Below are positions 206 through 26,904 of a DNA stretch of 64,000 bases, one piece after another. The translations under genes and the position numbers were made by a program. Source of the DNA: Tubulanus polymorphus (taxonomy: Eukaryota; Animalia; Nemertea); NCBI RefSeq assembly GCF_964204645.1, contig NC_134026.1, forward strand, positions 12,051,950 to 12,115,949. Reading direction: 5' to 3'. The notes under the pieces are model-generated. The model worked only from the letters and a program-made list of their open reading frames with translations, was not told where the DNA came from and did not search any database. Each line of letters starts with the position of its first letter. Within the stretch, counting starts at the first letter, position 1.

Positions 206-727
206 TCAGGTGCGTGGTCTTGCGGTTTCAAAAGTGCGTGCACTTTTCAAATATTTGTCTAGTGTCAAATCTTCCTGACCTAGGAATTTTACTCGGAGTT
301 CATTACTACGGCACTTTTCAACGATCTGGTCTCTGATCATCTCAGACTCTTTGTTGCCATAGTCACAAGATCGGACAAGGTCTCTGAGTGCGGTAGCATA
401 CTGGTCGATAGTTTCACTTTCATTCTGTGCTCGTTGGCGAAATTTATAACGTTCAGCTATAGTGTTCTTCTTTGGTTCGAAGTAGGCCTTCAATGCAGCC
501 TTCGCTTCTGCAAACGAAGTCTTTGATCCAGGGAGTGCAGCAAACACCCTCTGAACAGATGCTCCCATACAATGGAGCAAAGTAGCTCTGCGTATCTTGT
601 CCTCCTTCTGGTCCACGCCAGAGGCTACCTCGAAAAATTCGAATGAGGCCAGCCATGAACCCCATTCGGCTGCCAGGTCTGTGGCGTTCAAGTTCAACGG
701 GGCCGGAGCCCGAAGATTTTCGGCCAT
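206..727 (-). pseudogene. Gypsy gag-like protein; frameshifted near 206, with CCHC zinc knuckle residues continuing in another frame (CAYCKKKGHYARKC)
   Basis: ORF has LLHCMG, ERYKFRQRAQ..ETIDQY..ALR.L...C.YG and MIRDQIV motifs typical of Mag-type gag; likely ATG at 727 (MAENL). Confidence 0.8.
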
Positions 728-851
728 TTTAATTTTCACAGGCGGGTTGAATGTTTAACAATCGTACCTGTTTCGACGATCAAATTCGACCTCCAACGGA
801 CGAAGAATACAAAAATACACCGCTCTATATCAACATTAGTGTTCCAAATTT

Positions 852-1086: not shown

Positions 1087-1175
1087 AGTAATTGGAAAGT
1101 GGGCTTTCAGATCAGAGGTCGTGCGGTCGAGACACCACTCATCACCACAAGTAATTTTTTTTCCTAATAAATGGG
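1087..1175 (+). repeat. Left terminal inverted repeat (89 bp)
   Basis: Reverse complement of 18173-18262 apart from a 1-nt indel. Confidence 0.95.
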
Positions 1176-1496
1176 AGATAGAAAAGGATTCTTAGCAACA
1201 ATAAATAACAGAATTAAACCAGCAAAAAACAATTTGAAATAAAAAAGTTAGTTGATGTTACAAAAGAAATTGAACATAAAATATTGAAATTAGAAAAGAT
1301 AAAAACTAAATATGGAGAGAAAGTATCGGCGAATTTAAGCTACTGCAATGTTAGTACATCGCGAGAATTTAAAGTGTTTTTACCTGATAAATGGGTTTCA
1401 TTGAGTACAGAGGAATTAAAAGATTTAGAAGGATTTAAAATAATCTATCATGGGAAAAATGAAGACGGTCATCATGATTTAGAAATTGTTGATTAA
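1171..1496 (+). pseudogene. Small Polinton protein (TKYG...VFLP motif), frameshifted near 1230-1240
   Basis: TAAATG start at 1171 inside the TIR; first frame stops near 1240 and continues as ORF 1284-1496. Confidence 0.65.
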
Positions 1497-2438
1497 ATAA
1501 GAAATAAAAATAATGAATATCTAGAATCCAAAATGACCTTAGTCGTTTTATTGAACAACTACAATCATACAGTCAAACATCTGTTACATGTTATTATAAG
1601 AGAGTGCTTCATTTGAATATTGATCAATCAAACAGGTGTTGCACAACGTTGTTGTTATATTGGATAGCTAGCAGTTATATAATAAGCACGCAGTACATAC
1701 AACACACACACACAGGACAGGAGGATAGTCATTCTCTCTCGTGATTAAAAGGAATATTTCAATGTTTTTACGGTAAGTTTTAGCAAAACCACCCGACTTG
1801 ACTCACAGAGTTTTTAGGGGATAAGCATCCCGTTATTGAGAGGCGCCACGAGATACCTATCCCCAAGCATTTCTACTTACACCCCTGTGACCCACACCTC
1901 ACCAATTCTCCTTCAATGGTTGACAGGAAACACATTATATTAAAGGCGCCTAATGCATTTCCTATTAACCCCTTACCCTCGAAAGGAGGATCGAAAGTCG
2001 AAACTGAAGGAGAACCACGGAGGGTGGACATTTTCGAAATGCCCCTGCAAGCCAAAAAAATATGCTAAAAAAATATATGAAATTTGAAATTATAAATTAT
2101 TCCGAATGAAAAGAATATAAGAATGAAAACTGATAAATGAATTATGGATTTTTAACTTAATTATGATATAATTTTTAATCATATTAGTAATCGATTACCA
2201 TGTTAATTGATTAACAAATTCAAATTCAAATTCAAATAATTCATTTTAGCATCACACCCCACCCAGTGCTGCCATCTTTCAATTTAAGAAAAAACTAATA
2301 ATAAGAAACGACTGTAATACAATATTCAAGTAAAAACAAAATAAATTAATAAAAATAATGAATATCTAGAATCCGAAATGACTTATCTGGACAATTTAAT
2401 TGCTCCGCATAGATAGACAAAAGTAGTGAGATATTCAA

Positions 2439-2834
2439 TTATTTTTTTTGCTTTTTTTCTAAAATATTAATCCATTTTTTTATTATCAATTTTGGAATTT
2501 CAGAAGTATTTTCATTTTTGATAGCATTTGTTTCAGAATTATTTATATCATGAATTTTATTTGATTTCTTATACCAATTACACCCAATCAAAATGAATAC
2601 AATTACAAATCCAACTGTAAAATATAGATATTTATCAAATATTCTATTATTAGAAGGAGTAGAAATAAGAATATTTTCACCATTTTTATTAACATTTTTA
2701 TTACTTATTTTTTCTTTTACAGCTTTTTTATATTCTTGTGATTTAATTCCTAATTGCCGTGACCATTCAATTTGTTTCTGTGATCTCGGTTTTGTCTTCA
2801 CAGTTAATTCCTTCACTTCTTCCACCTCGCTCAT
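2439..2834 (-). CDS. Hypothetical single-pass membrane protein (131 aa)
   Basis: TAAATG start; hydrophobic stretch YLYFTVGFVIVFILIGC. Confidence 0.75.
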   Translation of the reverse strand: MSEVEEVKELTVKTKPRSQKQIEWSRQLGIKSQEYKKAVKEKISNKNVNKNGENILISTPSNNRIFDKYLYFTVGFVIVFILIGCNWYKKSNKIHDINNSETNAIKNENTSEIPKLIIKKWINILEKKQKK

Positions 2835-3372
2835 TTATTATAGAAATATTTTTACTTTCAATATTTGAAAATGTTATAACCCCAGTTGATAATAATGTCA
2901 TAAATCCACCTAATTGAAATGATAAATATCCAATCCATTTATTTAATTCAGTCATAACTAAATAGTCATTTTTTAAATCGGAATATAATCTATTTTCATC
3001 TTCAATTGGTAGTATATAATTACATAATTTACTATAACCTTTTACTACATTTTCTGATATCGCGTCATTAATTCTAGCTGTTCTCGCGGCTTCATAAATC
3101 TTAAATAATCTAATAATTTCATCTGATTTCATTGTATCGAATTCATCATAAGTTAAATTTTTACCGACAAAATTTCTACATTTTCCAGATGCTATTAATA
3201 TTTCTAATTGATGTTTACAGTAAAGATAATATTCATAATTATTATTTGTTGTAACATTATTTAAAGCACCATCATCTGGAATTAATTTGTTTTCTGTTAT
3301 TCCTAAATCATCTAAAGTTTTTTCAATTGGAACATCACCATTTTTAGATTTTATTTTCTTTTCACCTACCAT
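2767..3372 (-). CDS. Hypothetical protein (201 aa) with a C-terminal hydrophobic segment
   Basis: T7-GTTATA-TAAATG start; intact ORF. Confidence 0.75.
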   Translation of the reverse strand: MVGEKKIKSKNGDVPIEKTLDDLGITENKLIPDDGALNNVTTNNNYEYYLYCKHQLEILIASGKCRNFVGKNLTYDEFDTMKSDEIIRLFKIYEAARTARINDAISENVVKGYSKLCNYILPIEDENRLYSDLKNDYLVMTELNKWIGYLSFQLGGFMTLLSTGVITFSNIESKNISIINERGGRSEGINCEDKTEITETN

Positions 3373-3403
3373 TTATATAACAAAAAAATTAGTTGTGATG
3401 TTG

Positions 3404-3641
3404 CAACTAGAATTCAACTAGATTAACAAGCTAGTTGAAATATTGTTGTGTTTGTTTATTTCTTGTTAAATCTAGTTGATTTTTGTTTCAACTACTAACA
3501 ACTAGAATTCAACTAGAATGTAACTAGAATTAAACTAGATTAACAAGCTAGTTAAAATATTGTTAAATCTAGTTGATTTTTGTTACAACTACCAATAACT
3601 AGAATTCAACTAGAATTCAACTAGATTAACAAACTAGTTGA
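3404..3641. repeat. Intergenic array of direct and inverted CAACTAG/CTAGTTG repeats
   Basis: CAACTAGAATT units and CTAGTT(G) counterparts, arranged in larger duplicated blocks. Confidence 0.8.
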
Positions 3642-3643
3642 AT

Positions 3644-4251
3644 TTAAATAAATTCATATTTAAATGGGTGTTGTAATCTAAATAGTAACTTTGATCTTTT
3701 AATATTTTTCAACTTATCCATATATTCATTATGTAAATCATGTGGAATAATATCATTTTCCTCAAGTGCATTTTTCATCGATTTTCTATCTTTATTGTAG
3801 AATAAAACTAGAAATCTAATGTTTTCTCTAAAGTCTTTAACAATTGAATTATATTTTTGATTTAAAACCCATGTTGTTATCCCAAAATGTCTCCCAGAGA
3901 AAGCTAGATAACATAACTCACTTTCTCTGACTTTTGAATCATGTAAATTTGCGCAATCATCTATGATAAATAATGTATTTGATCCTTTATAAATATCAAT
4001 TGCTATTTTTATACAATTATCTAAATTTTCTTTTACTGTTTTAGGATCTAATATAATAAATTTATTTTTCTAGTAATATTTCTATCATAAGTTTGATTAA
4101 ATTCATATGTTGGGCAAAATAATACTATGTTATCAAAATAGTTTTCATAAACAGTATCTAATAAATTTAATATAAAATAAGTTTTTCCACAATTTGTTAC
4201 GCCAGATATTAACATATTATGAGGCTCAAATATAAATAATTCCTTATTCAT
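3644..4251 (-). pseudogene. A32-like (FtsK/HerA superfamily) packaging ATPase with one frameshift near 4065
   Basis: Walker A GVTNCGKT; after the frameshift, Walker B LFIIDD and the SGRHFGITTWVLNQ motif; stop at 3644. Confidence 0.9.
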
Positions 4252-5379
4252 TTATATATTTTTAATTTTACTTGATAATATCCATTCATTAATTTTATCT
4301 GGCCATCCAACCCATTTTACTAAAGAATATTTTTTTCTTTTAATAGTTTTTGTTTTTAATACTTTTTCAATTTTATATTCTTGTTCTAGATTTTCAGTAG
4401 TTAAACTTAATTCTTCTTCGTAAAAGTAGCCATCAACTTCTTCACCATCTAAATCTTCTAATTTATAGACATATGGTTTTGTTGTTATTACCTTTTTTAT
4501 TTTATATATTTCCCTAGTAAAATTTCGATCGTATCCTTTGTCAAATATCTTTTTATACTTAGATATTCTAACATTTTGGCCAACTTTAAATTTAGGTTCA
4601 CCAAAATCATCTACAAGAAATGCTCCATATAAATTATTCCAAACAATTTCAGCATTTTCAGGTTTTCTAGCATCAATAGGTTTCATTCCAATAGAAGAAT
4701 GATAAGAATTATTATATCCTTCTATCAATTTTGGTAAAACATCAATCCATTTAAAAGTATTATTTGCTGTAAAATATTTCCACATTCTTGTTCTTAATGT
4801 TCTATTAAATCGTTCAACAACTGCTGCTTTTTTATCCGATTTTGTTGAAAAATATTTAATATTATGATTGTCTAAGAGTTCATGAACAAGTGAATTATCA
4901 AACTCTTTTCCATCATCAAATTGTATTTTTTCTGGTTTTAGTTTATCATCCGAAAGAAATTTTCTTAAAACATTTGATGTTTGTACAGCATCTTTTCTAT
5001 AAAGTGGGAAACTCCATACATAACGACTAAAAATATCAATTATAATCAATAACCACCAATAATCATCATTATCTTCCTTAACATTTTTCGTATCAATTAA
5101 ATCTCCTTGCCACTGTTGATCTACATAACTTACCATAGTTTTACGAGTTTTATATTTTCTAACAATTTTTTTATGTGTTGTGTATGTTGGTTGTTCTAAC
5201 ATAAATTCATTTATATCTTTATATTTAATTAAATTGTGTGGGATTATCTTATCTAATTTATCTTGTTTTACTTTACGCCATATATTTTTGGTAGAAGAAT
5301 AAGCAACCGAACTCTCAGGGTTGTAATATAAATTTCTTAAATATTGTTCTTTAGTATTAGGAGTTTTTTTACCTCCCAT
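4252..5379 (-). CDS. Retroviral-like (rve) integrase with C-terminal chromodomain
   Basis: WQGDL, IDIFSRY, FDDGKEF and VERFNRTL form the DDE motif; C-terminal YKIEKVL...LVKWVGWPDKINEW is a chromodomain. Confidence 0.95.
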   Translation of the reverse strand: MGGKKTPNTKEQYLRNLYYNPESSVAYSSTKNIWRKVKQDKLDKIIPHNLIKYKDINEFMLEQPTYTTHKKIVRKYKTRKTMVSYVDQQWQGDLIDTKNVKEDNDDYWWLLIIIDIFSRYVWSFPLYRKDAVQTSNVLRKFLSDDKLKPEKIQFDDGKEFDNSLVHELLDNHNIKYFSTKSDKKAAVVERFNRTLRTRMWKYFTANNTFKWIDVLPKLIEGYNNSYHSSIGMKPIDARKPENAEIVWNNLYGAFLVDDFGEPKFKVGQNVRISKYKKIFDKGYDRNFTREIYKIKKVITTKPYVYKLEDLDGEEVDGYFYEEELSLTTENLEQEYKIEKVLKTKTIKRKKYSLVKWVGWPDKINEWILSSKIKNI

Positions 5380-5409
5380 TTATATATCGTTAATTTTAAC
5401 TTTATATTT

Positions 5410-6657
5410 CTAATATTGAATACTATCTAATTGGGAATTTACAATATTTAATTGTGCATCAGATATAATATAAATGTGCATTTTAAAATTTTTGTCTCCT
5501 CTTTTCTTTTTCATGAATAATTGTATTCCATCTTTAGTGTTCTGTAGTTTTTTTCCAGAACCATGTAATGAATTATCCTCTGTTGTTCTAAAATCTAACC
5601 ATAATGCATATTTATTGCCGGTATAATAATCAATTTGATTAATATTACAATTTTCAAATGATTTTACTTTTTCATTCATAAAATGTTTTCTAATTTCTGG
5701 CCATTGATTAATCATTCTCATTCCTTGACAAAATATTTTATTTGCTATTCCTTCGATAGTTATTTCTACTTTTGTTATTTCAGGATTATAATAATTATCT
5801 ACCTTTATTGCGCCATTAGTATATGTTGCAATGGTAAAAAATATTAATATACCTTTAATAGATCTTCTTGGGAAGTTAATATTCTCATTAATTATTTCAT
5901 CATTTGCATTAATAGTTACAGTTTTAAATTTATCAATATAATCATATAATAATGAAAATCCTTGATTGTATTGAGTTTGAATTGTGCTAGCAATATTTTC
6001 ATTAGTTACTGTGTTATATTCTAAACATATATTCGATAATTTATAACCCATATCTTTAACAACGCTAGATAATACAATTTCATTTACAGGAGCAAATGTT
6101 ATCTCAAATATAATATCTTCTTGAATTGCGTATTTATATAAAGGTGCATTATTATTTATCAATTCAAAGTCTAATGGAATTTTATATTTGCTTCCATAAA
6201 TCTTTTTAATCAAATTATCTGTGGCACGAGTTACTATTGCGTCATTAGCTCCTGATCTTAATTTATTATGGTTTTCCGATTGAATACCCTGAAATACCAT
6301 ATTATTTCTATTTTCATTAGTTAACCATAAATCTTTATAATGCATAAATAAATTATAATCATCTAATGAGAAAACTGTTTCTGGACCAATCTTTATTGTT
6401 AATTTTTTAATCAAATATCTCCCAACATTATCGACAACATAATTATTATCATAACCAGTTACTTTTATATCGGCTGATAAATAAATACTATTTGGAACAT
6501 AAAAAGTATTTTGTGTTAATCTAGGAATTGTAACATATAAAGTTTCATCGGGATTAATATTTGAAGGCTTATGTGTAATTATATGATGTGATCTTTCTGC
6601 TTTAATAGCATTAGATATTCTAGAAATCTTAGAAGGACTTATAAAACTCCCACTCAT
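5410..6657 (-). CDS. Major capsid protein (predicted double jelly-roll), 415 aa
   Basis: Size, beta-rich pattern (LIKKLTIKIG, YKIPLDF, YKLSNICLEY, ITKVEITIEG) and context; intact ORF. Confidence 0.8.
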   Translation of the reverse strand: MSGSFISPSKISRISNAIKAERSHHIITHKPSNINPDETLYVTIPRLTQNTFYVPNSIYLSADIKVTGYDNNYVVDNVGRYLIKKLTIKIGPETVFSLDDYNLFMHYKDLWLTNENRNNMVFQGIQSENHNKLRSGANDAIVTRATDNLIKKIYGSKYKIPLDFELINNNAPLYKYAIQEDIIFEITFAPVNEIVLSSVVKDMGYKLSNICLEYNTVTNENIASTIQTQYNQGFSLLYDYIDKFKTVTINANDEIINENINFPRRSIKGILIFFTIATYTNGAIKVDNYYNPEITKVEITIEGIANKIFCQGMRMINQWPEIRKHFMNEKVKSFENCNINQIDYYTGNKYALWLDFRTTEDNSLHGSGKKLQNTKDGIQLFMKKKRGDKNFKMHIYIISDAQLNIVNSQLDSIQY

Positions 6658-6697
6658 TTATTTAACAAAAAAATTAATTATTTATTTTTAATCATGT

Positions 6698-8129
6698 TTA
6701 CTTGATATTTTTTGATATCATATTCACTAACCCAAAAATAATAGCAGTTGCAACTGTAATTAAAAATAAAATAATATGTTCAGCAGCAAAGTTAAGAATA
6801 TTCCCAGCAGATTTCAATATAAAACCAACAATTGATGCAATAATTCCTGGTAAAGCTGAAGCAGATTTTTTAAATAGTTCCCATAAATAATTTGCTAATT
6901 TCTTTAAACCATCTTTAACTTTATCTTGTATAGAATTATTACCTGGGGGTTTATCTGGTTTATTTGGAGTAGGAGTAGATTTCAAAGAATTTGATATTGC
7001 TAAACCAATTGTTGTAAATAACATAGTTACAGCTGTTAGAATTGAAAGAATTGTTATTCCTTCTAATTTAAATAATAACTTTATTCTATCTTTTAATGAT
7101 ATTTCAGAATTTGGTTTAATCAACAAATCTTTAAAAATAACTTTTAATCTATTAATATTATAATCATATGATTCTAATAATAATTTAATTTCTTCTTTCT
7201 GTACTTCTAAATTATCTTTTAAATTATTAATTTCTTTTTCTAAACGTAATTCTTTTTGCCTATATTCTATTTCATCAATTACTTGATGATCTAAATCAGA
7301 CTTTAGTTGTTCTATTTCTTTATTTGCATTAGTTAATTCTTTTTCCAAATACATAAATTTTTTGATCTCTTATACTTTTATTATGTGCAATTTTATCAGC
7401 TTCATTTCTTATACTAATAATTTCTCTAATTGCTTCATCAGAAAATATATTTAAATCTTCTAATTGTTGATCTGTTGCATCAAGTAATCCATTCGGTAAA
7501 AGTTTTTCAATTAGAACTTTATTTGATTTAAGTTTACTAGTTTTAGAAGTTTTATTCTGTTCAGAAGTTGTTTCTGTTTTTGATTTCTTTTTGATTATTT
7601 CAAATAATTCATTAATTCTTTGTTTAAATACGTCTATATCATTATCAGTTAATTCTTGTTTTATAACATCAGTTATTACATTACTATTACTTATTCTTTT
7701 AATTCTATCTGGATCTAATTTTCTCAAAGTTAATTTTGTTATTATTTTTTTTTAATAAGTGATATCAATATAATAATCATCTTTCAAACGATAATAACAT
7801 TTACCATTATCTAAAAATTTTAATTGATCTGCTAAAAGTCCAACGTCTTCATCATTTATGTTAAGTTTAGATTTTTCAATTAAATCTTCTAATTTAGGTA
7901 TTTTGTTTAAATTATCTAATTCTTGTTTTACTAAATCTGGGTCTAAATTTTCAGGATTTAATTGTGATTCTGAATTTTTAATATAATCAGGCATATTTAA
8001 ATTATTATTATATTCTGGCTCATTGCCATCATTAAAACTTGTTTCACTAAAATCAGGTTGTTGTTCATCAGTTATACCAGGTTCATCAAAAGGATCCATT
8101 CCAATATCTTCTCCACCTTCTACATCCAT
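6698..8129 (-). pseudogene. Coiled-coil protein with acidic N-terminus and C-terminal membrane helices; one gene broken into three ORFs
   Basis: Single TAAATG start at 8129; in-frame TAA at 7752-7754; frameshift near 7340. Confidence 0.7.
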
Positions 8130-8145
8130 TTATATAATAAAAAAA

Positions 8146-9536
8146 TTAAAATTTAAGATATAATATTCCTCCTATAACAATTCCTATACAAGTTTAAGCT
8201 AATTTAGTATTTTCATGTAATTTATTATCATTATCAGTTTTAATTATATCATGTTGAATATTATCAGTTTTAATATTTTCTGTACTATTGTAATCTTTTA
8301 TTTTGGAATCATTATCCAATTTAATATTCTTAGTTTTAGTTTCTGTTGATTGAATATGTTTTTTATTTTTTTCACTTTCCATTAATTTTGGAGCAGTAAT
8401 TATCTTTTTATTTATATCATTCAATCCAAATGAATTATTTATTGTTGCAGTTTTAATTAGATTATTATAACCAATTATATTTCCCATCTTTAATACTAAA
8501 TCATTAGAAATAATTAATAGATTAGGGCCTATACAATAATTTAATCTAATATGTGATTTATCTAAATAATTTTGATATCTTACAATGTTTTCTGGAATCG
8601 ATCTATTTTTATCATTATAAATGGAATCTTCAAATAATACTTTAAATTGTTTCTGCGTATCAAATGATGTATTTAAATTTCCAATTATTGGGGATCTTGT
8701 TTCAACTTGCGCACCTAAAATACATATCAAATAAGTTCTAATAGATTGATTTATTCTTTGTATACCTGATTGTGTAAAACCTTCATTATTTTCTAAAATG
8801 AAATAAACCCAACCATTATTGTTTTCTTGTTTTAAATTATCATAAAATGTCGGTAATTTATTGAAATTTAATGTTTCTAAATCATTTGTTTCTATTTTAC
8901 CATAACCTCATTTATTACTATAGATGTTATAAAAACTATTAAATGGTATGGAAGTGCACAATATTCTGCAATCTTTTTAGGGCAAGGAAGTGATCTTATT
9001 GTTCCAATTTTTGTTCTAAAATCAGAATTATTTATATCTATATTAAATTCATTACAAATTTTATAAAACTTTGATAAATTAATATTATTATCTTATTCTT
9101 TAAAATACCTAGATCCTGGTAAAGCGCACTCTAATTCATTTAATATTATTCTGATTTGAAAGTATGTATGAAATCTAAATAAACTTTGAATTAATTTATA
9201 TTTAGAATTATTCAAATGATCATTCCAACTAATTCCACAACCTGTTGTTGCACAATAAACAGCAAAATTTAATTGGTTTTGCCAATACTTCATATTAGAT
9301 TTTAATAACCATTGTTTTTCATCTTTCAATTTTTTAATATTAATTAAATATACATGAAATATATTTTCCATCTTTGCATTAAAATTATTAGTTTCAGTAA
9401 CATAAATTTCTAAATTAGTTAGTAATGAATCTAAAACTTCATTTCTATATGTAATATCTTTATTAAAATCTATTGCTGGAATATTATATTTAATTGATTT
9501 ATTATATTGGAAAGCTTTTGGAAAACTATCTACCAT
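8146..9536 (-). pseudogene. Conserved-looking hypothetical protein (WQNQLNFAVYCATTGCGIS motif) with C-terminal hydrophobic tail, disrupted
   Basis: TAAATG start at 9536; fragments 9093-9536 and 8194-8730; reading through the stop at 8194 gives TCIGIVIGGILYLKF. Confidence 0.65.
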
Positions 9537-9552
9537 TTATATAATTAAAAAA

Positions 9553-9987
9553 TTAATAATTCATTAATTCTTTTAATAATTTATCTTGTTCTTCAACTGT
9601 TATATGACCATTTAAACTTATTATATAATCTAGTGTATTCTTTAATTTATTAATTCCTTTTATATTAGTTTTAATTTTTTCTTTATTACTTTTTATATTT
9701 AATTTTGAACTTATACCAGTTAATACACTTGAACTTAATCCTAATACACCAATTGAAATAGCTAAAGGTGTTAATGGGCTGAATATTGCTAAAAATGTTA
9801 TTACAGAACTAATTGTAACCGAACCACTTATAATCAAATAATATATAATTTTACTTTTTAAATATTTTTTCTTTTTTATCTTTAAGTCACTTTCAAATTC
9901 TAATATTTGTTTTTCTAAATATGTTTTTAATTTAGTTTTATTTATATCATGAGGAATAATATCAATACTATCAACTTTATCTTCCAT
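9553..9987 (-). CDS. Hypothetical two-TM membrane protein (144 aa)
   Basis: T8-CTAAA-TAAATG start; central hydrophobic hairpin. Confidence 0.75.
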   Translation of the reverse strand: MEDKVDSIDIIPHDINKTKLKTYLEKQILEFESDLKIKKKKYLKSKIIYYLIISGSVTISSVITFLAIFSPLTPLAISIGVLGLSSSVLTGISSKLNIKSNKEKIKTNIKGINKLKNTLDYIISLNGHITVEEQDKLLKELMNY

Positions 9988-10006
9988 TTATTTAGAAAAA
10001 AAATTA

Positions 10007-10429
10007 CTAATTAGTAAATTTATATGCTACAAATATAACAATAACTGTTCCACCTAAAATCCAAATTATTTCATATTTCTGTTGTTCTTTACTTGGGGTG
10101 TAATAATCTGATAATTTAGGTTTGTATTGATGTAATTTTTCTTTATTTGTTACGGCGTTATATAAACTCATTGCATCATCAACTGATTGAAAATCTCTAT
10201 GTGAAATCTTCTGATCATATAATTCTTTATTGATGTAATCCATATAGTTTTGCCTCCTTTCTCTATATTCTTCTGCTGCTTTATTGTATTTCTCTAATGC
10301 TAAGTTATGTCTTCTTTGTTCTCCTAATGAACTATTTTTATCAATATGTTTAAATAAATATCCACCACCAGTAAATGCTAAAGCGTTAACAATTGCCGAT
10401 CCTATAATAGTTATAATTGCAGAAGCCAT
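10007..10429 (-). CDS. Hypothetical membrane protein (140 aa) with hydrophobic N- and C-termini
   Basis: TAAATG start; IGSAIVNALAFTGGGYLF, central helical region, C-terminal TM. Confidence 0.8.
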   Translation of the reverse strand: MASAIITIIGSAIVNALAFTGGGYLFKHIDKNSSLGEQRRHNLALEKYNKAAEEYRERRQNYMDYINKELYDQKISHRDFQSVDDAMSLYNAVTNKEKLHQYKPKLSDYYTPSKEQQKYEIIWILGGTVIVIFVAYKFTN

Positions 10430-10453
10430 TTATTTAGTAAAATAATTACGCAT

Positions 10454-10675
10454 TTATATGGGAGGAATATATTTTTGTTTTTCCAAATAATCAATAGTTA
10501 AATTAGATAAAGTAATTGCTAATGTTAATTTTAAAATATCATTTATATCAAATCTATCAACATTAACACTTCCCATTTTAAATACTTTTTTTAATACCAT
10601 TGAATAACCAACAGTTCCAACTGATAGTAATGCGCCATTATATAATCCAGTTATTATCCACTTATTATCACTCAT
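10454..10675 (-). CDS. Small hydrophobic protein (73 aa)
   Basis: T9-GATAAA-TAAATG start; fits the tight gene packing. Confidence 0.7.
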   Translation of the reverse strand: MSDNKWIITGLYNGALLSVGTVGYSMVLKKVFKMGSVNVDRFDINDILKLTLAITLSNLTIDYLEKQKYIPPI

Positions 10676-10682
10676 TTATTTA

Positions 10683-11033
10683 TCAAAAAAAAATACTATC
10701 ATCAAAATATTTAGTTAACTTATTTACGATTAATTCAACATTTATTTCATTACTAGTTTCATTTGTATATATTTCAATTATTATTTTTTTAATATCATCG
10801 ATGATAAAATCTTCAGCTAATTCATAAAATCTTAAAGATTCTCTAATTAAATTAGTAATCTTTTCTACATTTAAAGTTTCTTTATCTATTGTTTTTTCAT
10901 ACTCAAATGTTGTTTCATTTGAAAATGCAATATTTTTGATATGTGTAATTACATCATTAATGTTAAATTTCATTTCTTTCTCACGTTTAAAATCAAATCC
11001 AAAACATATACTCGGTCCAACAGTTATATTCAT
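10683..11033 (-). CDS. Hypothetical protein (116 aa)
   Basis: T6-CACTATA-TAAATG start. Confidence 0.7.
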   Translation of the reverse strand: MNITVGPSICFGFDFKREKEMKFNINDVITHIKNIAFSNETTFEYEKTIDKETLNVEKITNLIRESLRFYELAEDFIIDDIKKIIIEIYTNETSNEINVELIVNKLTKYFDDSIFF

Positions 11034-11049
11034 TTATATAGTGAAAAAA

Positions 11050-11812
11050 TTACTCTTTACATCTTATAACTAATTCATAAATTACGGGAAAGTTATTCAA
11101 ATCAATTAAATAACCATTATGATTTCTTATTTCTAATTTAAAATTATTGAAATGTGGAATACAAGGTTTGAAATCATATTCAGTTAAATTATAATTTATT
11201 TGAGTTCCAAATTGTTTGACATTTTTTAATGGTAAAATATTTAATAAACCAGAATTACAAATTGTATCTTTAGTTGCTTCAAATGTTTTTGTTGGGTCAA
11301 TCAAATTGCAATAAATATAAAAATGTGTAAAAGGTATTAAGTTTGATCTACCTTCTGCGTATGCTGTAACAATATCTGGGTTAATTCCTAACAGTTTACC
11401 TAAAGGTTTTCTTACTTTAAATTTAAATTGTTCGTCATTAGCTAACCTAATCTTTATTTTATTAGAACTATCACTTTTTAAAATTCTAATACTAAATCCG
11501 GAATCACTTCCTAATTTAGCTCGAGCTTTTCTATTAATTTTTTGTGCTAATGTATCTAAACTATATAATCCTGGTTTTAAATATATATATAAAAAACCAT
11601 TTATTCCTTTTTTTGTAAAAGATTGAAAAAATTAAATGTTCTAGACTTTTATCCTTTATATTATAAAAAGAATTACATAAACTTATATTAACTAATTTTA
11701 AATCTACACAATTCTTAAATTCTCTATTTAATTGAACTAGTAAATTATGTGATTTATAATTTGTAAGTTTTCTAGAATCAACAAATATTCTGTATTCTTT
11801 TAATTCTACCAT
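11050..11812 (-). pseudogene. Minor capsid protein (penton, single jelly-roll), frameshifted near 11590
   Basis: N-terminal IFVDSR...SFYNI, internal FKPGLYS and FYIYCNLI, C-terminal LEIRNHNGYLIDLNN match the penton pattern. Confidence 0.75.
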
Positions 11813-11880
11813 TATTTATAACATAAACAAATTACCGCTCATCACTAAAAATTAATTTTAATAAAATTTTTCCTAAATAA

Positions 11881-13197
11881 ATGGATGAGAAGATAGCATG
11901 CGAAATTTGTGGTGAACTTCTAAGAAAAAGTAATATGGCTCGACATATGAAAAAACATGATGAAAATTATAAACCCCCTAAACTAAACTGTCCAAAATGT
12001 AATAAATTATTCTCAAGAAATTATGTTAAAAAACATTCAGAGAAGTGTAAAATTAATGGCGCAACGGCTAATGTTGATAGTAATGAAAGTAATAGTAATT
12101 CTGCTGAAGTTGAACCTGAAATTATTTGGAAAAGACCTTTCTTATTCTATGACAAGGATAATATAAAAGATCATATCTGTGAGCCTTGTCAAGTAAAATA
12201 TAGCCCTGAAAATAAAGAAGATTGGGAGAATCATCAATTTCGTAAAGCACATATAGATAAAATTTCTAATAAATTTGAAACTGAATTCAATGAAAGAAAA
12301 AATAATTTATTAGAAAAAATAAAATATGAGAAAACGTTACCAGATAATAAAGAAACAGTTGAAAAGTTAGAAAAACAATATAATGAATTAACAAGAAAAA
12401 CATATTATTGTAAATATTGTCAATTGATTATTACAACAAGTAATTCAAATCTACATAATAGAACAATAAAACATAAAGAAAACGTAAGAAAATACCAAGA
12501 GCTTAATGAAGATCTATTACCAATACATTATAAACAAAAATGCCCACAATGTAGTTATGCAACCTTAAGACAAGAAGGTACTGTGTTATTTTGTAATGAA
12601 TGTGGATGGCAAAAGAATTTATGGAGTGAAGAAAAAACTAGAAATTTTCTCATAGATCCAAAATTAAATTATCTAGATGAAATTTTTAAAATATTTTCTA
12701 TAGAAGATCATACACCAGAATATATGCAATGGCTTGAAAAAATGAAAATAATAGAAAATAAAAATGGTGAAATAACTAAAAAAGATATTATAAAAACAAT
12801 TATTCCGTCAACATTTAACACAAAACCAAAGAAAATGTATTTATATTTATTATTTAACGATTATTATGAAAAACCTAAATTAACAAAAGAAGATATGAAA
12901 AATATAAAAAAAATATTCAAACAAATATTAATGTATCATTTGGAAAATAGAATAACAGATTCAATAAATTATGAATTCTTTTTAAATAAGATTGTAGATT
13001 ATTTATACATAGATATTATAATTCCATTTGATGAATTAACAAACAAAAAGAAACAAAGAGAGCGAGATGAAATGTGGAACAAGATAGAACTTTATTTAAA
13101 TAAGAAAAATGAAATGGAAGAAGAACCTAAACAATTAAATGAAAATGAAGAAGCCAATAGTGATTTCGAGTATGATGATATTGATTTTATGTTTTAA
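11881..13197 (+). CDS. Multi-zinc-finger protein fused to a poxvirus A2/VLTF3-like late transcription factor domain
   Basis: N-terminal C2H2/C2HC fingers; then a CPQC-x13-CNEC ribbon, NF...KL.YL, IFKQIL...EN...SINYEFFLNKIVD and a C-terminal W, resembling vaccinia A2 ([13 protein letters not shown], recalled from memory). Confidence 0.8.
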   Translation: MDEKIACEICGELLRKSNMARHMKKHDENYKPPKLNCPKCNKLFSRNYVKKHSEKCKINGATANVDSNESNSNSAEVEPEIIWKRPFLFYDKDNIKDHICEPCQVKYSPENKEDWENHQFRKAHIDKISNKFETEFNERKNNLLEKIKYEKTLPDNKETVEKLEKQYNELTRKTYYCKYCQLIITTSNSNLHNRTIKHKENVRKYQELNEDLLPIHYKQKCPQCSYATLRQEGTVLFCNECGWQKNLWSEEKTRNFLIDPKLNYLDEIFKIFSIEDHTPEYMQWLEKMKIIENKNGEITKKDIIKTIIPSTFNTKPKKMYLYLLFNDYYEKPKLTKEDMKNIKKIFKQILMYHLENRITDSINYEFFLNKIVDYLYIDIIIPFDELTNKKKQRERDEMWNKIELYLNKKNEMEEEPKQLNENEEANSDFEYDDIDFMF

Positions 13198-16100
13198 TAA
13201 CCATAAGGTAATGTTTTTATACCATCACCTGAAATATGTCTTTTATCATCAAATGGATTTAAACTAGTTTTTTCAACTTCATTAATGTACATCTCATGAT
13301 CTTCTGATCTTATACAATTCATTTTGTGTTTCATTACAATTGAGTTATATAAACACTTTATATAATCTTGAAATTCTATATGTTTATCAACCACATGTTT
13401 TGTTATTCCTTTTAACTTTTTAGCTTCATGATCTTTTGTTCTATAACTATACATTTTACTTCTTATCCCAACAAATTCAATCATTTCATCACCCCCTAAT
13501 TCATCTTTAAACTTACCAGGAATCTTTTTATTATCATTGCTAAATAGTTCATGATCTTTGGGATAATTGCTAAAATCAAAATGATGTTTTAATGTTTTTA
13601 AGTCTTTTGTTATGTCATTTGTCTTGATTTTTAGTATGTAACTGTCAGTATTGAAGCAAATTAATGGAAATCCACAGTTAAATGTATCATCTTCAGTTGA
13701 TAAATCATAAACATAATCTGATGGGTTATATATTTCAAATAAATCTTTAACTTCTTCAGTTAAATCTTTTTCTGTGTGGCTTAGATTAAAGCAATTTGGT
13801 TTAGATTTAATCAATCCAATATTCATATTGAAGCCTATTGAATTACATAATATATTTAACCCTGATATAGCAACTTTTCCTTTCTGTGCAAAGGTTATCT
13901 TTTTATCCTTTGTAAATTTTTTAGCACCATCTGCTGCATAGAATCCAATGAAGAACCATTTTCTTAAAATATTTTTTGCATTTGATACATAATCTGGAAC
14001 TATCTTTTCTTTTGTTGAAGTATTACTTTTCACTATTGCATGAATATAGAATTCATCATTATATTTTATAGCAAAATCTTTAGGATTATTTACAAGTATT
14101 CTATAAACTGCTGATGATTTCATAACATCCATGATTTTAAATGTTTTATTTGGATAAACTTCTTCACAGAATTTCTTAATTCTTTCTAATAATTTTAAGT
14201 CTTGATTGCATAAATACCAACAATATTTATTACCCCAAACATAATTATACACACCTGCTGAACCATCACCCATGAAAAATCCTTTGATAAAATATTCTTT
14301 TTCTTCTAATGTTTCGGGTTCTATGTTATAAATATTATCAATTATTTCATCAAATGACATATGATTCATTCTTTGGAAAAATCTTTTATGTAATAATTCA
14401 TCTCCAATTTTTATATCAGTTGGTTTTATTTCATCGCCATTTCGTTTAATTAAACTATGATCTTCTGTAACATCTACAAACCCTAATTTAGTTCTAACTC
14501 TATAGATTTTCTTATTTGTTTTATGCCTAATAATATTCTTTAATTTTTTCCATCCATTTCTTGTCCAAACATCCATTAAACCATTTATTTGTATTAATTC
14601 TTTTTCACCATATGAAATATAACATTCATTTTGTTTTGGAATTATTTCTGAAATTCTTCTTATCAATATTTCATAATTACATTTTAATAATATTGGGGTG
14701 TCAGCTGTTACAGAATCAAAATATAATATTTCAATATGCTTTTCCCCAAAAAGTGGTTGTAAAACATTATAATAAAAATCATACATTAATAATTTTGATA
14801 CTTCTAAAACAGTTGAACCAATGAATATAGGTTTATTAAATTTCATTGACGTTCTTTTTAATTTAACTGCTGTTCAATAATCTTCAAATCTTTTATTTCC
14901 TAAATGTCTAGGACTTGATTGTAAATGTCTTAATCTTTCAGAATTATTTACTAATTCAATATCATTTCTATTTCTAATATTTTCACATGTTTTACCATAA
15001 AAACTATTATTCATTAATTTGAAGAAATCTTTTTCAAAATCTGTTTTTGATATTGTTCTCCGTTGAGTATTGAAATCTATATATTTTTCTAACCACTTCG
15101 ATTGATTAAATTCAATATATCTATGTACTTTCTTTAATTTCATTCCTTGTTTTAGATAAAATTTTAACATTCTATAATGAACAATATAATTGTATTTATT
15201 ATTTTGAGTAAGTATTAATTTTTCTGTAAAAACATGATCTTTCGGTTTTATTTTCTTCTGGTATTCACTTAAATAACTATCATCTACGGTTAAATGTTCT
15301 GGGCAATAAGGTAAGTTTCTTGTTTTAAACTTTATATTTTCAGGATATTCTAAATCAACTACAAAGAAATAACCAATTGGCGCTTCATCTTTTAAACTCG
15401 CAATTGCGCTTTCCCAATCAGTTTTATCATCATTTTCAACTTCTGTTCATATAAAATTTTTGTATGGTTGAGGTTGCATCATTGCCCAACCATATAAATT
15501 ATTGGCGTCAATATATAATAATTTATATTCATCATTTGCTTTAAAATATCTATCTCCCATAACACCACTAATTCCACCTCTAATTGATTTTTCAAATAAT
15601 AAAATCATATCTGGTTCTTTTAATAAATCTTATTCTACATTTGTATATTTTAAACCACATTGCCAGGTTAAACCAGGACTAGAGTAGCAATAACAAGGAT
15701 CAACATTAAAATGATTCAAATTAACTTCTCTAAATTTTTCAAATATGTCAGCCAATTTCATAACATCTGATTATAAATATAAATCAACTAATTCACCATG
15801 ATTTTTCATCTTAAAATGGTTCCAAATATTTAATGTTCTATTAAACACTTCGTCTTTCACATACTCCTCTTTTAATTGATCATAAAATTGATCTTTTAAT
15901 AATTCTGTTACATTAAAATCATTGTGTGTTTTATAAAATGAATAAGGAATTGCGCCTTTATATCTCAATAATTTAAAATCTTGTTCATTTGGATAATAAT
16001 ATCGAGTTATAACAAAATCATTATCAACTAAACTTTTTGATAAATTATCTAATGAACTTGCTAGAAATCTATAAGAATCTAAAAATCTAATGCAACCAAA

Positions 16101-18177
16101 TTGAAATGAAATATAATTTTCAGATGTTTTAGCTAATAGTTTAAAATCATATTTTCTTACATTTACACCATTCATAGCATTATATTCTTCTATTTCTTGA
16201 TTAATTGCGCCCAATTTTCCCGATAATTGTTTTATAAATAGATGGGTATCATAGCCTGATAAATTATGAAATAATATTGGTACGAAATTAACTTTCTTAG
16301 CTTGTAAATTGCAATCTTCATGAGCAGCTCCACGATATTTTGAATTTAAATGATCATGATCTCTAACTTTTTTATCAAATGAATAAAAACGTTTTTCACA
16401 ATAACAACAATGAGTTGCATAATTAAAATCAATTTCAAAATCATTAACTACATTTTCACCTCTAAAAGAAATATATTGACTTTCATATAATTCAGGATAA
16501 TTTGATTTTATATAAATTCCATAAGCAGCAGCTCTTTGATGAACTTTTTTAATTGTATTTATAATTGGTGGGTCTTGTATTGTGTCTTCATTTAATTCAT
16601 TTCCTTTATCCATTGATTTTAATAATTGCTTTTTGTTATATATTTCTTTTCTATCTTGATCAGTTAATTCTTTATTCAACGATTCAAAATCCCCATAAAT
16701 TACAAATGGAACAATATTCTTGAATTTATGATTAGTAAATTTCAATTTATAATCTTTTTCTGTTGGCATTATTAATTTACAAAAATCTTTATTATCACAT
16801 AATTCTTTATGTTTTAATAATGTATTCTCAGTCATAAATTTAGATAAACATTTTCTACATAGATAAATTTTATGATGATGATCACTTTCTGTTCTAAAGA
16901 ATAAATCAATTTGTTTTAACCACATATAATGTTCATTTTCATCTTTTTTGTAATATAACAAATCTATAGCATTTTCATCATCATAATATTCTGTTAAATA
17001 TAAAGCTTCCAATGTATAATCTTTAATATTTTCACCTTTTGTCTTTGGTAATTGCATTAATTCGAATACATTTATTTTTAAATTATTGACTTTTTCTATT
17101 TTAGAAATCATTTTTATAGTTACTGGATATTGATCAATTTTATATAATGTTTCATATTTCCGATAATCTGTTATTCTACAAACATTTTCCTGTGTTGGAT
17201 GTAAGCAACTAATAATTGACCATAGAAAACATTTATTATCTTCATTTTGAATATTTATTACTGCTTTTGTTGTAAATGGTAATTTAATATAAGATGATGC
17301 TTTAATATCCTTTTCTGTTGTAAAGTTTGAATCATTTTTAAACATTTTATTACTTTTTGATGTTTTGTTTCTTTTTGTATTATAAACATTTAAATCTAAA
17401 TATATAATTTCATTCAATGTTAAGCCAGAACCCTCAAAATATCTTTCTTCAATATGACGTTTAAATTCATTTAATATTTTTTTCTAACTTCTCTTTTATT
17501 TGTGTTTTTGAAATTATTTCTTCAGAGAGTGTTTGAATATTATAATTCATTTTTTCTTCTGACTTTATAAAACTTACTTTCCCAGAGATACTAATTTTTG
17601 GATTTTCAACATCTGTTATCAAATATAGTATTTTTTCTATTATTTCATTAAATTTACTATAATCTTCTATTCTTGTTCCTTTAAAAAATCTAAATATAAT
17701 AGCTGCAGGACCAATTTTACTATGTAATGTTTCTAAAATTTCAATTGTATCTTTTATTTCTAGTGAATCAATATAATTTCTAACATTTTCCATGTAAGGT
17801 TTATTTGAAATGGATTTAGTTTTTGAATTTGGTTTTTTTACTTTTTGAGGTTTATCGTCAAAATAATCTTTTCCTAAAACATTATTGCTCAAATTTTGGT
17901 GGTGTTTTTGTGATTCGAGATGTCTATTATAATTCCTTTTTGTTATAAACTCATTACAAACTTCACATTTTATTTCATCCACATTCATATTTTCTAATCG
18001 TTCTTTTCTTTCATTGGAATTTTCTGAAGTTTCAAAATCTATTCCATTTTTTATATGATTTGCAGTTTTTTCATGTCGTGATTTTTGGGATTTATCGATG
18101 TATTTTTTACAATATTGACAATCATATTGATTTTTATTAACATTATTGTTTTCTGGCTGGTGTTCATTCTCCCCCAT
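13194..18177 (-). pseudogene. Protein-primed family B DNA polymerase with N-terminal zinc fingers and an intein; 1 frameshift and 4 in-frame stops
   Basis: Exo motifs YGDFES, FHNLSGYD, FLDS; motif A YIDANNLYGWAM; motif B KLMNNSFYGK; motif C YFD/TDS; KMYSY, KLKGI and DDKR. Frameshift in an A7 run near 17480; stops at 15771, 15630, ~15447 and 14874. Confidence 0.95.
13650..14714 (-). mobile_element. Intein (355 aa) with LAGLIDADG homing endonuclease in PolB motif C
   Basis: YFD|SVTADTP ... VTEDH (block B) ... FIKGFFMGDG and FFIGFYAADG ... YVYDLST ... LICFN|TDS; removal restores YFDTDS. Confidence 0.95.
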
Positions 18178-18262
18178 TTATTAGGAAAAAAAATTACTTG
18201 TGGTGATGAGTGGTGTCTCGACCGCACGACCTCTGATCTGAAAGCCCACTTTTCCAATTACT
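18173..18262 (-). repeat. Right terminal inverted repeat (90 bp)
   Basis: Inverted copy of 1087-1175; includes the pPolB start codon. Confidence 0.95.
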
Positions 18263-18285
18263 CAAAGCTAATCACATTGCGAAAC

Positions 18286-19330
18286 TGGGATCGAGGTACT
18301 GTGTGTCGCGTGGATTACCCTTATACAAAGTGGCTGGGATCGAGGTGCTGTGTGACGCGTGGATTACCCTTATACAAAGTGGCTGGGATCGGGGTGCTGT
18401 GTGACGCGTGGATTACCATTATACAAAGTGGCTGGGATCGAGGTGCTGTGTGACGCGTGAATTACCCTTATACAAAGTGGCTGGGATAGAGGTGTTGTGT
18501 GTCGTGTGGATTACCCTTATACAAAGTGGCTGGGATCGAGGTGCTGTGTGTCGCGTGGATTACCTTTATACAAAGTGGCTGGGATCGGGGTGCTGTGTGT
18601 CGTGTGGATTACCCTTATACAAAGTGGCTGGGATCGAGGTGCTGTGTGACGCGTGAATTACCCTTATACAAAGTGGCTGGGATCGGGGTGCTGTGTGACG
18701 CGTGGATTACCCTTATACAAAGTGGCTGGGATCGGGGTGCTGTGTGACGCGTGGATTACCCTTATACAAAGTGGCTGGGATCGAGGTGCTGTGTGTCGCG
18801 TGGATTACCCTTATACAAAGTGGCTGGGATCGAGGTGCTGTGTGACGCGTGGATTACCCTTATACAAAGTGGCTGGGATCGAGGTGCTGTGTGACGCGTG
18901 AATTACCCTTATACAAAGTGGCTGGGATCGGGGTGCTGTGTGACGCGTGGATTACCCTTATACAAAGTGGCTGGGATCGAGGTGCTGTGTGACGCGTGAA
19001 TTACCCTTATACAAAGTGGCTGGGATCGGGGTGCTGTGTGACGCGTGGATTACCCTTATACAAAGTGGCTGGGATCGGGGTGCTGTGTGACGCGTGGATC
19101 ACCCTTATACAAAGTGGCTCGGATCGGGGTGCTGTGTGGCGTGGGGATTACCCTTATACAAAGTGGCTGGGATCGGGGTGCTGTGTGGCGTGGGGATTAC
19201 CCTTATACAAAGTGGCTGGGATCGAGGGGCTGTGTGGCGTGGGGATTACGCTTATATAAAGTGGCTGGGATCGAGGTGCTGTGTGTCGCGTGGATTACCC
19301 TTATATAATATTGCTAGGATCGAGGTTTTT
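18286..19330. repeat. 49-bp tandem minisatellite, about 21 copies
   Basis: Unit GGCTGGGATCGAGGTGCTGTGTGACGCGTGGATTACCCTTATACAAAGT repeated head-to-tail without spacers. Confidence 0.95.
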
Positions 19331-23870: not shown

Positions 23871-26313
23871 GTTAGAATCAATAGCAATTAGGGTACATAT
23901 TTGCGGCTCGGGTTATAGCGGATTATATGAATATATAGTGTACTATCATTGTAAAAGGGTTTATTCAATAAGAATTATAAAACAGAGATTTACTGCAGTT
24001 CCATAGTTCAATCATGGCTACCTCACTTGGTCCTTGATCCAATTACTACACCAGAACAATCTTCAGAATTCAACCCTTTGGCTTCAAAGCGACAAAGGGT
24101 TTCATTTGAACAAGATATAGTGAACGAAGTCTCCATAACTATGGCTCGTGACATAGCTGAAGCTAAAGATAGATTAAGATCCTTAGAAGAACAGAATAGC
24201 AATCTAAAAAGTAGAAATGATTCACTTGAAATGGAGAATTTGCAATTGAAGCAAAAACTGAGAAATTGCAATACGAGCTGCACTAATTTCCTCATGAAAA
24301 GGAAAGAAGCTTCAGCAAAATTATGGAAATCATTTGGAAGATATTTGGATTTAATATCAACAAGTGAGGCTCAGAATGTTGCCAGGCTTCAGTCCAAACT
24401 GCAGAAAGCCAAACAAACTATCAGGCAACTTCAGAGGAATAAATCAAAAACAAAATCCCGTTCACTATTATCCAGATCTAGCTTGAAAGAAAAACATTCC
24501 CAGAATTTAAATGTATCTCTTTGGAATATCAAGAAAATCTGTGTGGAAAGGTAAAAAGGATTTCATCTCTTAATTCAGAAGTTAGTCATCTACAGGATAA
24601 ATGTTTGACTAGAAAATAGGGAGAATCAGGTAGGCCTATTAGGCACTAAAATGGACGGAAGAACGTATTTGCATAAAATTCGTGAAGCTAGCTATCATCT
24701 GCAGAACTTAGGAATTTCTCAAAAAAATGTTTTAACTGTCATTAAATTAGTAAATTCTGCTCTCACCGATACTGAACTATCTGGAAATATCCCTTCGTAT
24801 ACAACTCAGAATCAATTCACTAAAGAAATGAAAGCTGCCTCTAGGTCTCAGGTTCAAGAAACCATTGAGAAAGAAGATAATCTCACAGTCAAATACGATG
24901 GAACTACAAATTAACTAGGACATCTTGTAGAAGTTGAGGTAGCCACCAAACAAGGCGACTTACTAATGGGACTAACCATTCAAGCCGGTGGAACTGCTGA
25001 TGAATATACTAAAACCATCGTTAAAGCATGCAATAGAATCGATTCTTCGAATTCTCAGAATTCAGTAGATTCCAACTCTACTTTGAATAAGATCAAAAAC
25101 ACCATGTCTGATCGTGTCACTACGAATACAGCGATTAAAAAACAATTAGAAAACTTGATAGGCCATAACTTGAATAACTTTATATGTGCCATGCACCCAC
25201 TAGAGGCAATGGCAGGCGACTGTGAGAAAGTGATCAAGATATATGAGGCATCAGTTGACATAGCCAGCAAAAAGATTGGCGTCAATTATCCCTTTCTACA
25301 TCGCGGTGAGAGCAACACAGTACTACAGTCGGAACAACCAGTAAATTATTTCATGACACAAAGTACAACTGTAGCACTGAATTGAGAAGTTTTCTTCATT
25401 CTAAAGGAATCGTACCTGAAACAGAAAGAAGAAAATCAGTAGGCCTACTTTATAATTGTTTTGTCGGCAATAGGTTTCATGTAGTTTTCCTCTCATGCGG
25501 TTCATTATACCATTATAAATCAAGAATTATCGAATTTTTCAATGACACTTTCAGTCCTCGAAATGTTGTTCAAACAGTAATAGGGGTAATAGGCTTTCAT
25601 ACCAAAGGTCGAAAGGTCGAGCTCATAAAAAATGAAAAATATGAAAATAATAACAATTTCTATTTGAATTAGTAGCGAAACTCATATAAAATGAAAAATA
25701 ATTCTCGCACACTCGAATTTATTTTTCATTTTTACTCGCTAGAAAAAAGTGTGAGTAAAGTGTGAGTGAAATAAATTCGAGTGTTTGAGAATTATTTTTC
25801 ATTTTTTATGAGTTTCACTACTAATTCAAGTAGAAATTGTTATTATTTTCATGTTTTTCATTTTTAATGAACTCGCCCCTTCAACCTTTGATATGAAAGC
25901 CTATTATCCCTATTACTCTTAAAATATTCATATACATGAATAAAATATATATGAATAACATATAAATTGATAGATTATTCAATATAAAAGTGTGAGTGAA
26001 ATAATTCATATTTAAAACATTGAATATTTATATTTGAATGAGTTTTAATAAAAATTTTGTTATAAAAATGAAGAAAGAAGAAGAACCCAACTTTAAAATC
26101 GAAATCAATGAAACCAATAAATCATTTTCACAGTTTTACATTAAAAATTATATTTCAGCAACAAATTTAGTGTTCGCAATACATTTTAAAATACATTATT
26201 TAATTACTGAACTAGTAGATACTTTTGATAATGGTGTTAAAAATCCTAAAGTATTCAATACAGTTTTAAATTTTAAAGGAACTTTAGATGAAAACATAAT
26301 TAATATTGATAAA

Positions 26314-26853: not shown

Positions 26854-26904
26854 ATTAGATATTTAAATCATTTAACTCAATTCAATAATTATAATGTAGA
26901 ATTG

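Follow-up and report, generated by a model that had tools for sequence, protein, structure and literature searches.

Promoter sharing with a helper virus is published for Sputnik, mavirus and Gezel, polinton-like viruses (PLVs) linked with poxviruses have been described, and VLTF3 genes are known from animal polintoviruses as well as from algal PLVs (PMC9356565; bioRxiv 2026.06.19.733378). What transcribes the genes of Polintons is an open question, and so is whether those of animals are autonomous or virophage-like. Here we analyse a ~17 kb Maverick/Polinton at positions 1087-18262 of a 64,000-nucleotide stretch of Tubulanus polymorphus DNA (Nemertea; contig NC_134026.1, positions 12,051,950 to 12,115,949), the whole of which we call the window. 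Nearly every gene of the element starts at the word TAAATG, and one of them encodes a putative factor resembling poxvirus A2. Because of these two features, we consider it probable that a co-infecting pox-type helper virus supplies the RNA polymerase by which the family is transcribed in the cytoplasm.

TAAATG stands at 14 of the 15 gene starts of the element, against 38 of its 657 other ATGs (Fisher p 7e-16). The fifteenth start reads TAAATAATG, and the same form occurs at one start of another locus, L047. Four close relatives, all metagenome loci (L001-L004) with 71-75% capsid identity and a rearranged gene order, carry TAAATG at 14/15, 7/7, 3/3 and 5/6 starts; L003 is a near-duplicate of L002, and the count over L001, L002 and L004 is 26/28. 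That the motif is kept through this divergence and rearrangement implies continuing selection. Distant relatives (three loci at 33-39% identity) have it at 0 of 12 starts, some of which are not real genes. In poxvirus controls, the word marks 48 of 113 starts in AT-rich chordopoxvirus loci around A2 and 7 of 18 in an entomopoxvirus-like locus.

The signal extends upstream of the start codon. Over 41 starts, the consensus consists of AA at -18/-17, a T-rich tract from -16 to -10 and then ATAAATG. Positions -14, -13 and -12 hold T in 34, 33 and 37 of the 41, -13 being the tenth base before TAAAT, and a run of at least five Ts at that spacing precedes 25 of the 41 starts versus 4 of 79 TAAATG words that are not starts. 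Both terminal inverted repeats (TIRs) contain the T-run together with TAAATG, and TAAATG signals also lie in a 68-nt junction between head-to-head genes; neither overlap of stop and start codons nor a poly(A) signal of an upstream gene can therefore alone account for the word. We rejected a TATA box as well, since the word abuts the ATG. It also leaves T at -3, a base that makes for a poor Kozak context. Descriptions of vaccinia late promoters give TAAAT(G) over the start codon and a conserved T ten bases upstream (PMC11980589), or a T-containing core 5-7 nt before TAAAT (PMC5294985). Judged by sequence, the element matches this late-promoter shape and spacing, with TAAAT(G) over the start codon and T at the tenth upstream base.

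The A2-like domain lies in a 438-aa open reading frame (ORF) at 11881-13197. A direct Pfam scan misses it; Atlas assigns it at 0.96 to PF04947 clusters, one of which has Preplasmiviricota members. A near-length protein search with the domain found nothing, and phmmer against 1.84 billion representatives returned four matches. P0307 and P0308 share the fusion to zinc fingers, P0309 (281 aa) is related more distantly, and P0310 (E 2e-4), the sole match with a Pfam VLTF3 domain, is a 226-aa protein of Pox_VLTF3 plus an A2L zinc ribbon. P0310 has one IMG/VR relative, a 63% identical A2 in a 232-kb genome. A 21-kb stretch of that genome is 82% AT and holds NAD ligase and MSV199 genes, hallmarks by which we take it to be entomopoxvirus-like. 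A side observation concerns P0309 and the capsid protein P0025 (~55% identity band), for each of which the longest contig listed is 12994 nt; this hints that the wider clade, too, carries A2.

A profile built from the window protein, P0307 and P0308 scored 38/38 poxvirus A2s, GC-rich ones included, at 37.8-57.4 bits, versus -1.1 to 21.6 for 24/24 giant-virus VLTF3s. With the fetch motif masked, poxvirus A2s scored 16-35 and giant-virus VLTF3s -10 to 8, and shuffled A2s stayed below 3. The predicted structure of the domain reached a mean predicted local distance difference test (pLDDT) score of 80 from a nine-row alignment, and 42 from the single sequence. When this model was used for a fold search, cowpox A2 came first (E 6.5e-7, template-modelling score (TM) 0.62), and the top four were three poxvirus A2s (cowpox and two entomopoxviruses) and one unnamed protein. 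Other giant-virus VLTF3s followed from 2e-4, with B385R of African swine fever virus (ASFV) at rank 18. Against PDB the model found nothing at E 0.001, with a best Z of 6.5. Together, profile and model support a VLTF3-like domain of poxvirus A2 type, not of the generic type of nucleocytoplasmic large DNA viruses. The first-pass annotation of this DNA, made from the letters alone, had named TAAATG gene starts, a VLTF3/A2-like factor and the lack of a recognisable RNA polymerase; the start counts and the profile, Atlas and fold evidence bear out the first two, and a Pfam scan of 26 ORF pieces of the element the third, with no match to RNA polymerase or protease families. NCBIfam, like Pfam, showed no poxvirus RNA polymerase subunit.

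Genes transcribed by RNA polymerase II (Pol II) tend to avoid AATAAA in their coding strands. The element carries 44 copies against 43.0 expected and its relatives 113 against 115.7, as in pox and giant-virus loci, at a density of ~4-6 per kb of coding strand. TTTTTNT, the pox early terminator, occurs at 0.40-0.41 of expectation, mostly because long T-runs have been lost, as is also seen in giant-virus loci; the depletion of the word is specific only in the relatives (6 versus 12.7), one of 45 tests and a hint only.

Several observations weigh against a pox-type helper. On the promoter side, TAAATG is not exclusive to poxviruses, occurring at 44 of 369 starts in giant-virus PolB loci and at up to 5/12 in one, and distant Polintons use the similar TAAAATG at 4/12 starts. 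The chordopoxvirus TAAATG starts sampled near A2 are A-rich upstream, with a T-run in 1/48; because sampled pox loci so rarely have one, the basis for the T-run match is the published consensus, not this sample. The AATAAA contrast depends on very small control counts (3 versus 7.2 expected in distant Polintons). The intein in the element's DNA polymerase gives no pointer to poxviruses. Expression in ordinary colony transcriptomes has been reported for coral polintoviruses (PMC11131425). As for the factor, the giant-virus set in the profile test was one narrow clade, with VLTF3s of asfarviruses, egoviruses, iridoviruses, mriyaviruses and PLVs outside it. The fold margin over non-pox VLTF3 is ~100-300-fold in E-value, and two of the nine folding rows were of entomopoxvirus type. 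In an unrooted VLTF3 tree of 33 rows (13 poxvirus loci, P0310, 15 of the 24 giant-virus sequences and 4 element rows), the element A2s fall outside the chordopoxvirus plus entomopoxvirus group on long branches (unstarred support 88/79), and the three groups show no sisterhood. An IMG/VR pattern scan for A2, with the host genome outside the search, found no helper virus and no pox-type A2 outside poxvirus genomes; its eight matches beyond the earlier poxvirus set were one poxvirus A2 and seven that do not lie in an open VLTF3 frame.

Some of these points would suit a helper-dependent, cytoplasmic life with another nucleocytovirus, asfarvirus- or egovirus-like or of an unsampled lineage, that uses a TAAAT-like initiator. 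Such a helper would accommodate an A2 outside the known poxvirus subfamilies, an intein from a giant-virus PolB and the giant-virus loci with TAAATG at 30-42% of starts, and there are pox relatives whose hosts are protists (bioRxiv 2024.03.23.586382). We think it unlikely, given that ASFV B385R ranks only 18th in the fold search, that mimi-, marseille-, pitho- and iridovirus VLTF3s also fall below poxvirus A2s there, and that the ASFV late initiator, as described, is TATATA and not TAAATG. The element could also be an autonomous nuclear one, its captured A2-like, TFIIB-like factor steering host Pol II to TAAATG with no need of a helper. It does encode its own factor, open in the window copy; the A2 model has a weak TFIIB/cyclin-fold likeness (Z 6.5, root-mean-square deviation 3.5, 92 aligned); many insertion sites speak of repeated nuclear access; and other polintoviruses are expressed in coral tissue (PMC11131425). 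We give this reading a low probability, too: AATAAA is undepleted, the TATA-like part abuts the ATG where 25-30 nt upstream would be expected, and the gene of the factor and that of the polymerase share the same start signal, so that nothing would start the cascade.

A further reading treats the signals as relics of a past poxvirus association, or as by-products of stop-start coupling and AT-richness, in a family that is now a plain transposon. The element is 76% AT, some TAAATG words are stop-start junctions (integrase to ATPase, for example) and 6 of the 15 genes are broken in the window copy. Yet the enrichment holds against the element's own ATG background (p 7e-16), the motif persists under the selection that its close relatives imply, and it is present where no upstream gene exists, all of which makes this reading very improbable. 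Transcription by a pox-type virus remains our preferred reading. The first-pass annotation had placed it in the factory of a pox-like virus; promoter shape and spacing, a pox-type A2 and the lack of AATAAA avoidance speak for that, and because we found neither a helper virus nor any transcript or particle, helper dependence is something that we infer.

We envisage the following cycle. Element DNA would reach the helper factory, where the helper polymerase would initiate within the AAA of TAAATG and the element's A2-like protein, with its extra zinc fingers, might bias or compete for late initiation. The element's polymerase would copy the linear genome from the TIRs, the capsid and ATPase would package it, and the integrase would insert it into the DNA of the host, including the germline. 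The proposal does not account for the reactivation of a copy integrated in the nucleus. A bolder version, which we regard as rather doubtful, is that a widespread, germline-integrating clade of animal Polintons depends obligately for its transcription on an undiscovered poxvirus lineage of marine invertebrates, outside the chordo- and entomopoxviruses, and that the virus wakes chromosomal copies as an inherited antiviral defence, an animal counterpart of mavirus; the A2 gene would then be a fossil record of the missing virus. A promoter word common to nearly every gene offers a direct test, and a sequence flag that could sort helper-dependent from nuclear Polintons across genomes. The prediction is a pox-type virus in a host group with none on record in the collections searched, and the A2 gene and promoter could serve as probes for finding it.

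The ends of the element are well defined. The left TIR (92 nt) and the right TIR (93 nt) agree at 99% over 83 nt; the outer 9-10 nt belong to them too and contain a one-base indel. A 6-bp target-site duplication (TSD), a length that is a Maverick/Polinton trait, flanks them. The element is mostly 19-26% GC and its flanks mostly 30-47%. Sequencing runs from two studies contain the empty site (1080 joined to 18263): 46 raw DNA reads under the same species label span it, in the ~12% of the run examined, and it is found in contigs of two runs of the other study. In the same raw reads, depth is ~100-1000 over the element versus 24 on the left flank, and at the right end 408 reads run out into unlike sequence (agreement 0.36). 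Because of the depth, the empty-site reads and the diverging right-end reads, the family is multicopy, on the order of ten copies at at least 90% identity and at many sites, and the insertion at 1087-18262 is polymorphic, not fixed. No free element ends were listed in the DNA reads. In a marine metagenome, pieces of 200-265 nt occur all along the element but not on its left flank, a pattern in which multicopy host DNA and free particles are indistinguishable. Contigs of three runs, one of them guessed to be RNA, give short pieces of the element only, which says nothing on expression.

The features are as follows, with window coordinates and strand.

1081-1086, unstranded: left TSD, CAAAGC; empty-site joint with 6 shared letters.
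1087-1178, plus: left TIR; within it lie a T-run, TAAATG and the left-end gene's start codon (1171).
1171-1496, plus: left-end gene, frameshifted; 73% identical to a 114-aa ORF of L001.
2439-2834, minus: 131-aa ORF with a hydrophobic stretch and a TAAATG start; conserved in L001.
2767-3372, minus: 201-aa conserved ORF with a TAAATG start.
3644-4251, minus: A32-like packaging ATPase, split over two frames; each piece has a Pfam Pox_A32 match.
4252-5379, minus: rve integrase with chromodomain, open, 375 aa; Pfam rve 6e-10.
5410-6657, minus: probable double-jelly-roll major capsid protein, open, 415 aa; weak Capsid_N match, 1305 homologs.
6698-8129, minus: coiled-coil/membrane-type gene, broken into three pieces; its L001 counterpart has 485 aa.
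8149-9536, minus: conserved Polinton gene, broken into three pieces; its L001 counterpart has 442 aa, with a similar ORF adjoining the capsid gene in the distant loci L005 and L006.
9553-11033, minus: four small ORFs (144, 140, 73 and 116 aa), each with TAAATG; the 144-aa one weakly SLATT-like.
11050-11812, minus: putative minor capsid gene (from its size), frameshifted, start TAAATAATG.
11813-11880, unstranded: 68-nt head-to-head intergenic region with two start signals.
11881-13197, plus: 438-aa ORF with several zinc fingers, then the poxvirus A2/VLTF3-type domain (12523-13140).
13194-18177, minus: DNA polymerase B of the protein-primed type (pPolB) with an EndoVII-like insert, four in-frame stops and one frameshift.
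13650-14714, minus: 355-aa intein, located in PolB motif C and containing a LAGLIDADG domain.
18170-18262, minus: right TIR, holding a T-run, TAAATG and the start codon (18177) of pPolB.
18263-18268, unstranded: right TSD, CAAAGC.

Judged against L001, 6 of the 15 genes are broken, namely pPolB, the ATPase, the putative minor capsid gene, the left-end gene and two larger genes, while the capsid, integrase and 438-aa genes are open frames. The window element is thus a decayed copy of an integrating family, and the earlier description of it as complete fits its ends (TIRs, TSD, empty site) and not its genes. Its pPolB and P0147, itself a DNA_pol_B_2 protein at 5e-17, share 59% identity over 1097 aligned positions. 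The first-pass annotation also spoke of capsid genes. A probable major capsid gene is there, with Polinton-type relatives, one of the named ones from a bivalve; the Pfam Capsid_N match of the window protein (E 0.01) is below the cut-off, Capsid_N is found in 20 of 41 aligned capsid relatives at E up to 0.05 (best 1e-4), and the protein has no sequence match in PDB. By close search neither the capsid nor the A2 domain has relatives in IMG/VR, and the element has no Rfam match.

Additional observations concern the relatives and the non-coding parts. L001 carries at 10343-10981 a deoxynucleoside kinase gene (Pfam dNK 2e-31) with its own T-run and TAAATG, absent from the window copy. Capsid relatives at ~55% identity (P0044, P0123-P0130) include proteins source-labelled Bartonella sp., probably host DNA in those assemblies, and L005-L007 are Polinton fragments in three prokaryote metagenome-assembled genome records, probably eukaryotic contamination. 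A segment of ~85 nt outside the called ORFs is common to window 2355-2440 and L001 2440-2520, at different gene junctions; its first ~33 bases recur 845 nt upstream (window 1504-1537), flanking a GC-richer stretch, and it may be a cis element. An 11-bp repeat cluster with inverted arms lies downstream of the ATPase gene (window 3400-3680) and is a possible origin or terminator.

The intein that the first-pass annotation placed in PolB motif C is indeed present, splitting the YxD|TDS motif. Its closest relatives are inteins of other pPolBs (63-41% identity), then those of RNA-primed PolBs of giant-virus type. We built a quick tree, with 64 rows left after a boundary rule had dropped 57 of the 120 matches listed, four pPolB-type ones among them. 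The seven pPolB inteins sit on one side of a branch (Shimodaira-Hasegawa-like approximate likelihood-ratio test 99), among giant-virus-type inteins, and the intein records an old meeting of Polintons with giant viruses. The intein had also been counted towards the pox link; we rejected it as such evidence because it is shared with other Polintons and derives from a non-pox giant-virus PolB. It is not specific to the TAAATG clade either, and homing-endonuclease inserts in polinton pPolBs are on record (PMC11161782). Separately, P0152 is a pPolB that carries an intein of the same clade although its motif-C context differs, a sign that the clade may have spread between Polinton polymerase types.

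Remnants of gag, hAT and PIF1/UCH and satellites make up what was recognised in the flanks, and no diagnostic host gene was found in them. The host DNA is eukaryotic and rich in repeats. The insertion is located upstream of a retrotransposon gag ORF, ~330 nt away, and next to a 49-bp satellite present in 21 copies (window 209-754 and 18285-19326). Further off are an AT-rich duplicated ORF of ~215 aa with a C-terminal zinc-finger-like motif and a 24-bp array (26038-27552), which has no DNA match to the element, a hAT dimerisation domain (44946-45200) and a Helitron-like remnant (UCH plus PIF1; 51666-54770).

The element belongs to the Maverick/Polinton group (Polintoviricetes) by its TIRs and 6-bp TSD, protein-primed PolB, rve integrase and A32-like ATPase, the last broken in the window copy; a capsid-type gene, a length of ~17 kb and multiple copies are likewise shared with described members (bioRxiv 2026.06.19.733378, PMC8502044). 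It differs from them in its near-universal TAAATG starts, pox-type A2 and PolB intein, and in that no cysteine protease was found among its 26 ORF pieces. It is probably a group 2 element. Most group 1 members carry a cysteine protease of adenovirus type, and none was found among the ORFs of L001 either. Virophages (Virophaviricetes), too, have a conserved protease, and the capsid relatives of the element are Polinton-type. Our literature searches, which lay outside subscription journals, Repbase reports and supplements, found no paper on poxvirus-type promoters in Polintons. Stony-coral polintoviruses are likewise animal polintoviruses with a VLTF3 homolog; that report treats it as a generic giant-virus gene, its main text does not contain the word promoter, and the passages covered make no pox typing or helper claim (PMC11131425).

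Closest in proposed lifestyle are the entomopoxvirus-associated PLVs AHEV_PLV1/2, CBEV_PLV1 and Ca_PLV1, small capsid-coding DNA elements also proposed to parasitize poxviruses (PMC11296320). They are described there as ~12 kb, with a protease and with a tyrosine recombinase or no integrase, whereas the element has rve and no protease was found among its ORF pieces. Their link to poxviruses is co-sequencing from occlusion bodies, and promoters, VLTF, TAAATG and inteins go unmentioned in the main text; the link proposed here is through promoters and A2, with the helper not in hand. With poxviruses themselves the element shares the post-replicative promoter form, TAAATG over the start codon and T ~10 nt upstream (PMC11980589, PMC5294985), at 93% of its starts versus 39-42% in the sampled AT-rich pox loci. 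It also shares the A2/VLTF-3 build of a zinc ribbon and a helical A2 domain (PMC12917281, PMC11980589, PMC5294985); unlike in poxvirus A2, the domain is fused behind ~215 aa of zinc fingers and is highly diverged. Mavirus, Sputnik and Gezel-14T, finally, are described as sharing their helper's promoter, and mavirus also integrates (bioRxiv 2022.07.28.501842); if our reading is right, the element would do alike. Their helpers are mimiviruses of protists and their dependence was shown in culture (bioRxiv 2022.07.28.501842), whereas the element probably has an animal host, carries pox-type signals and has a dependence that we infer.

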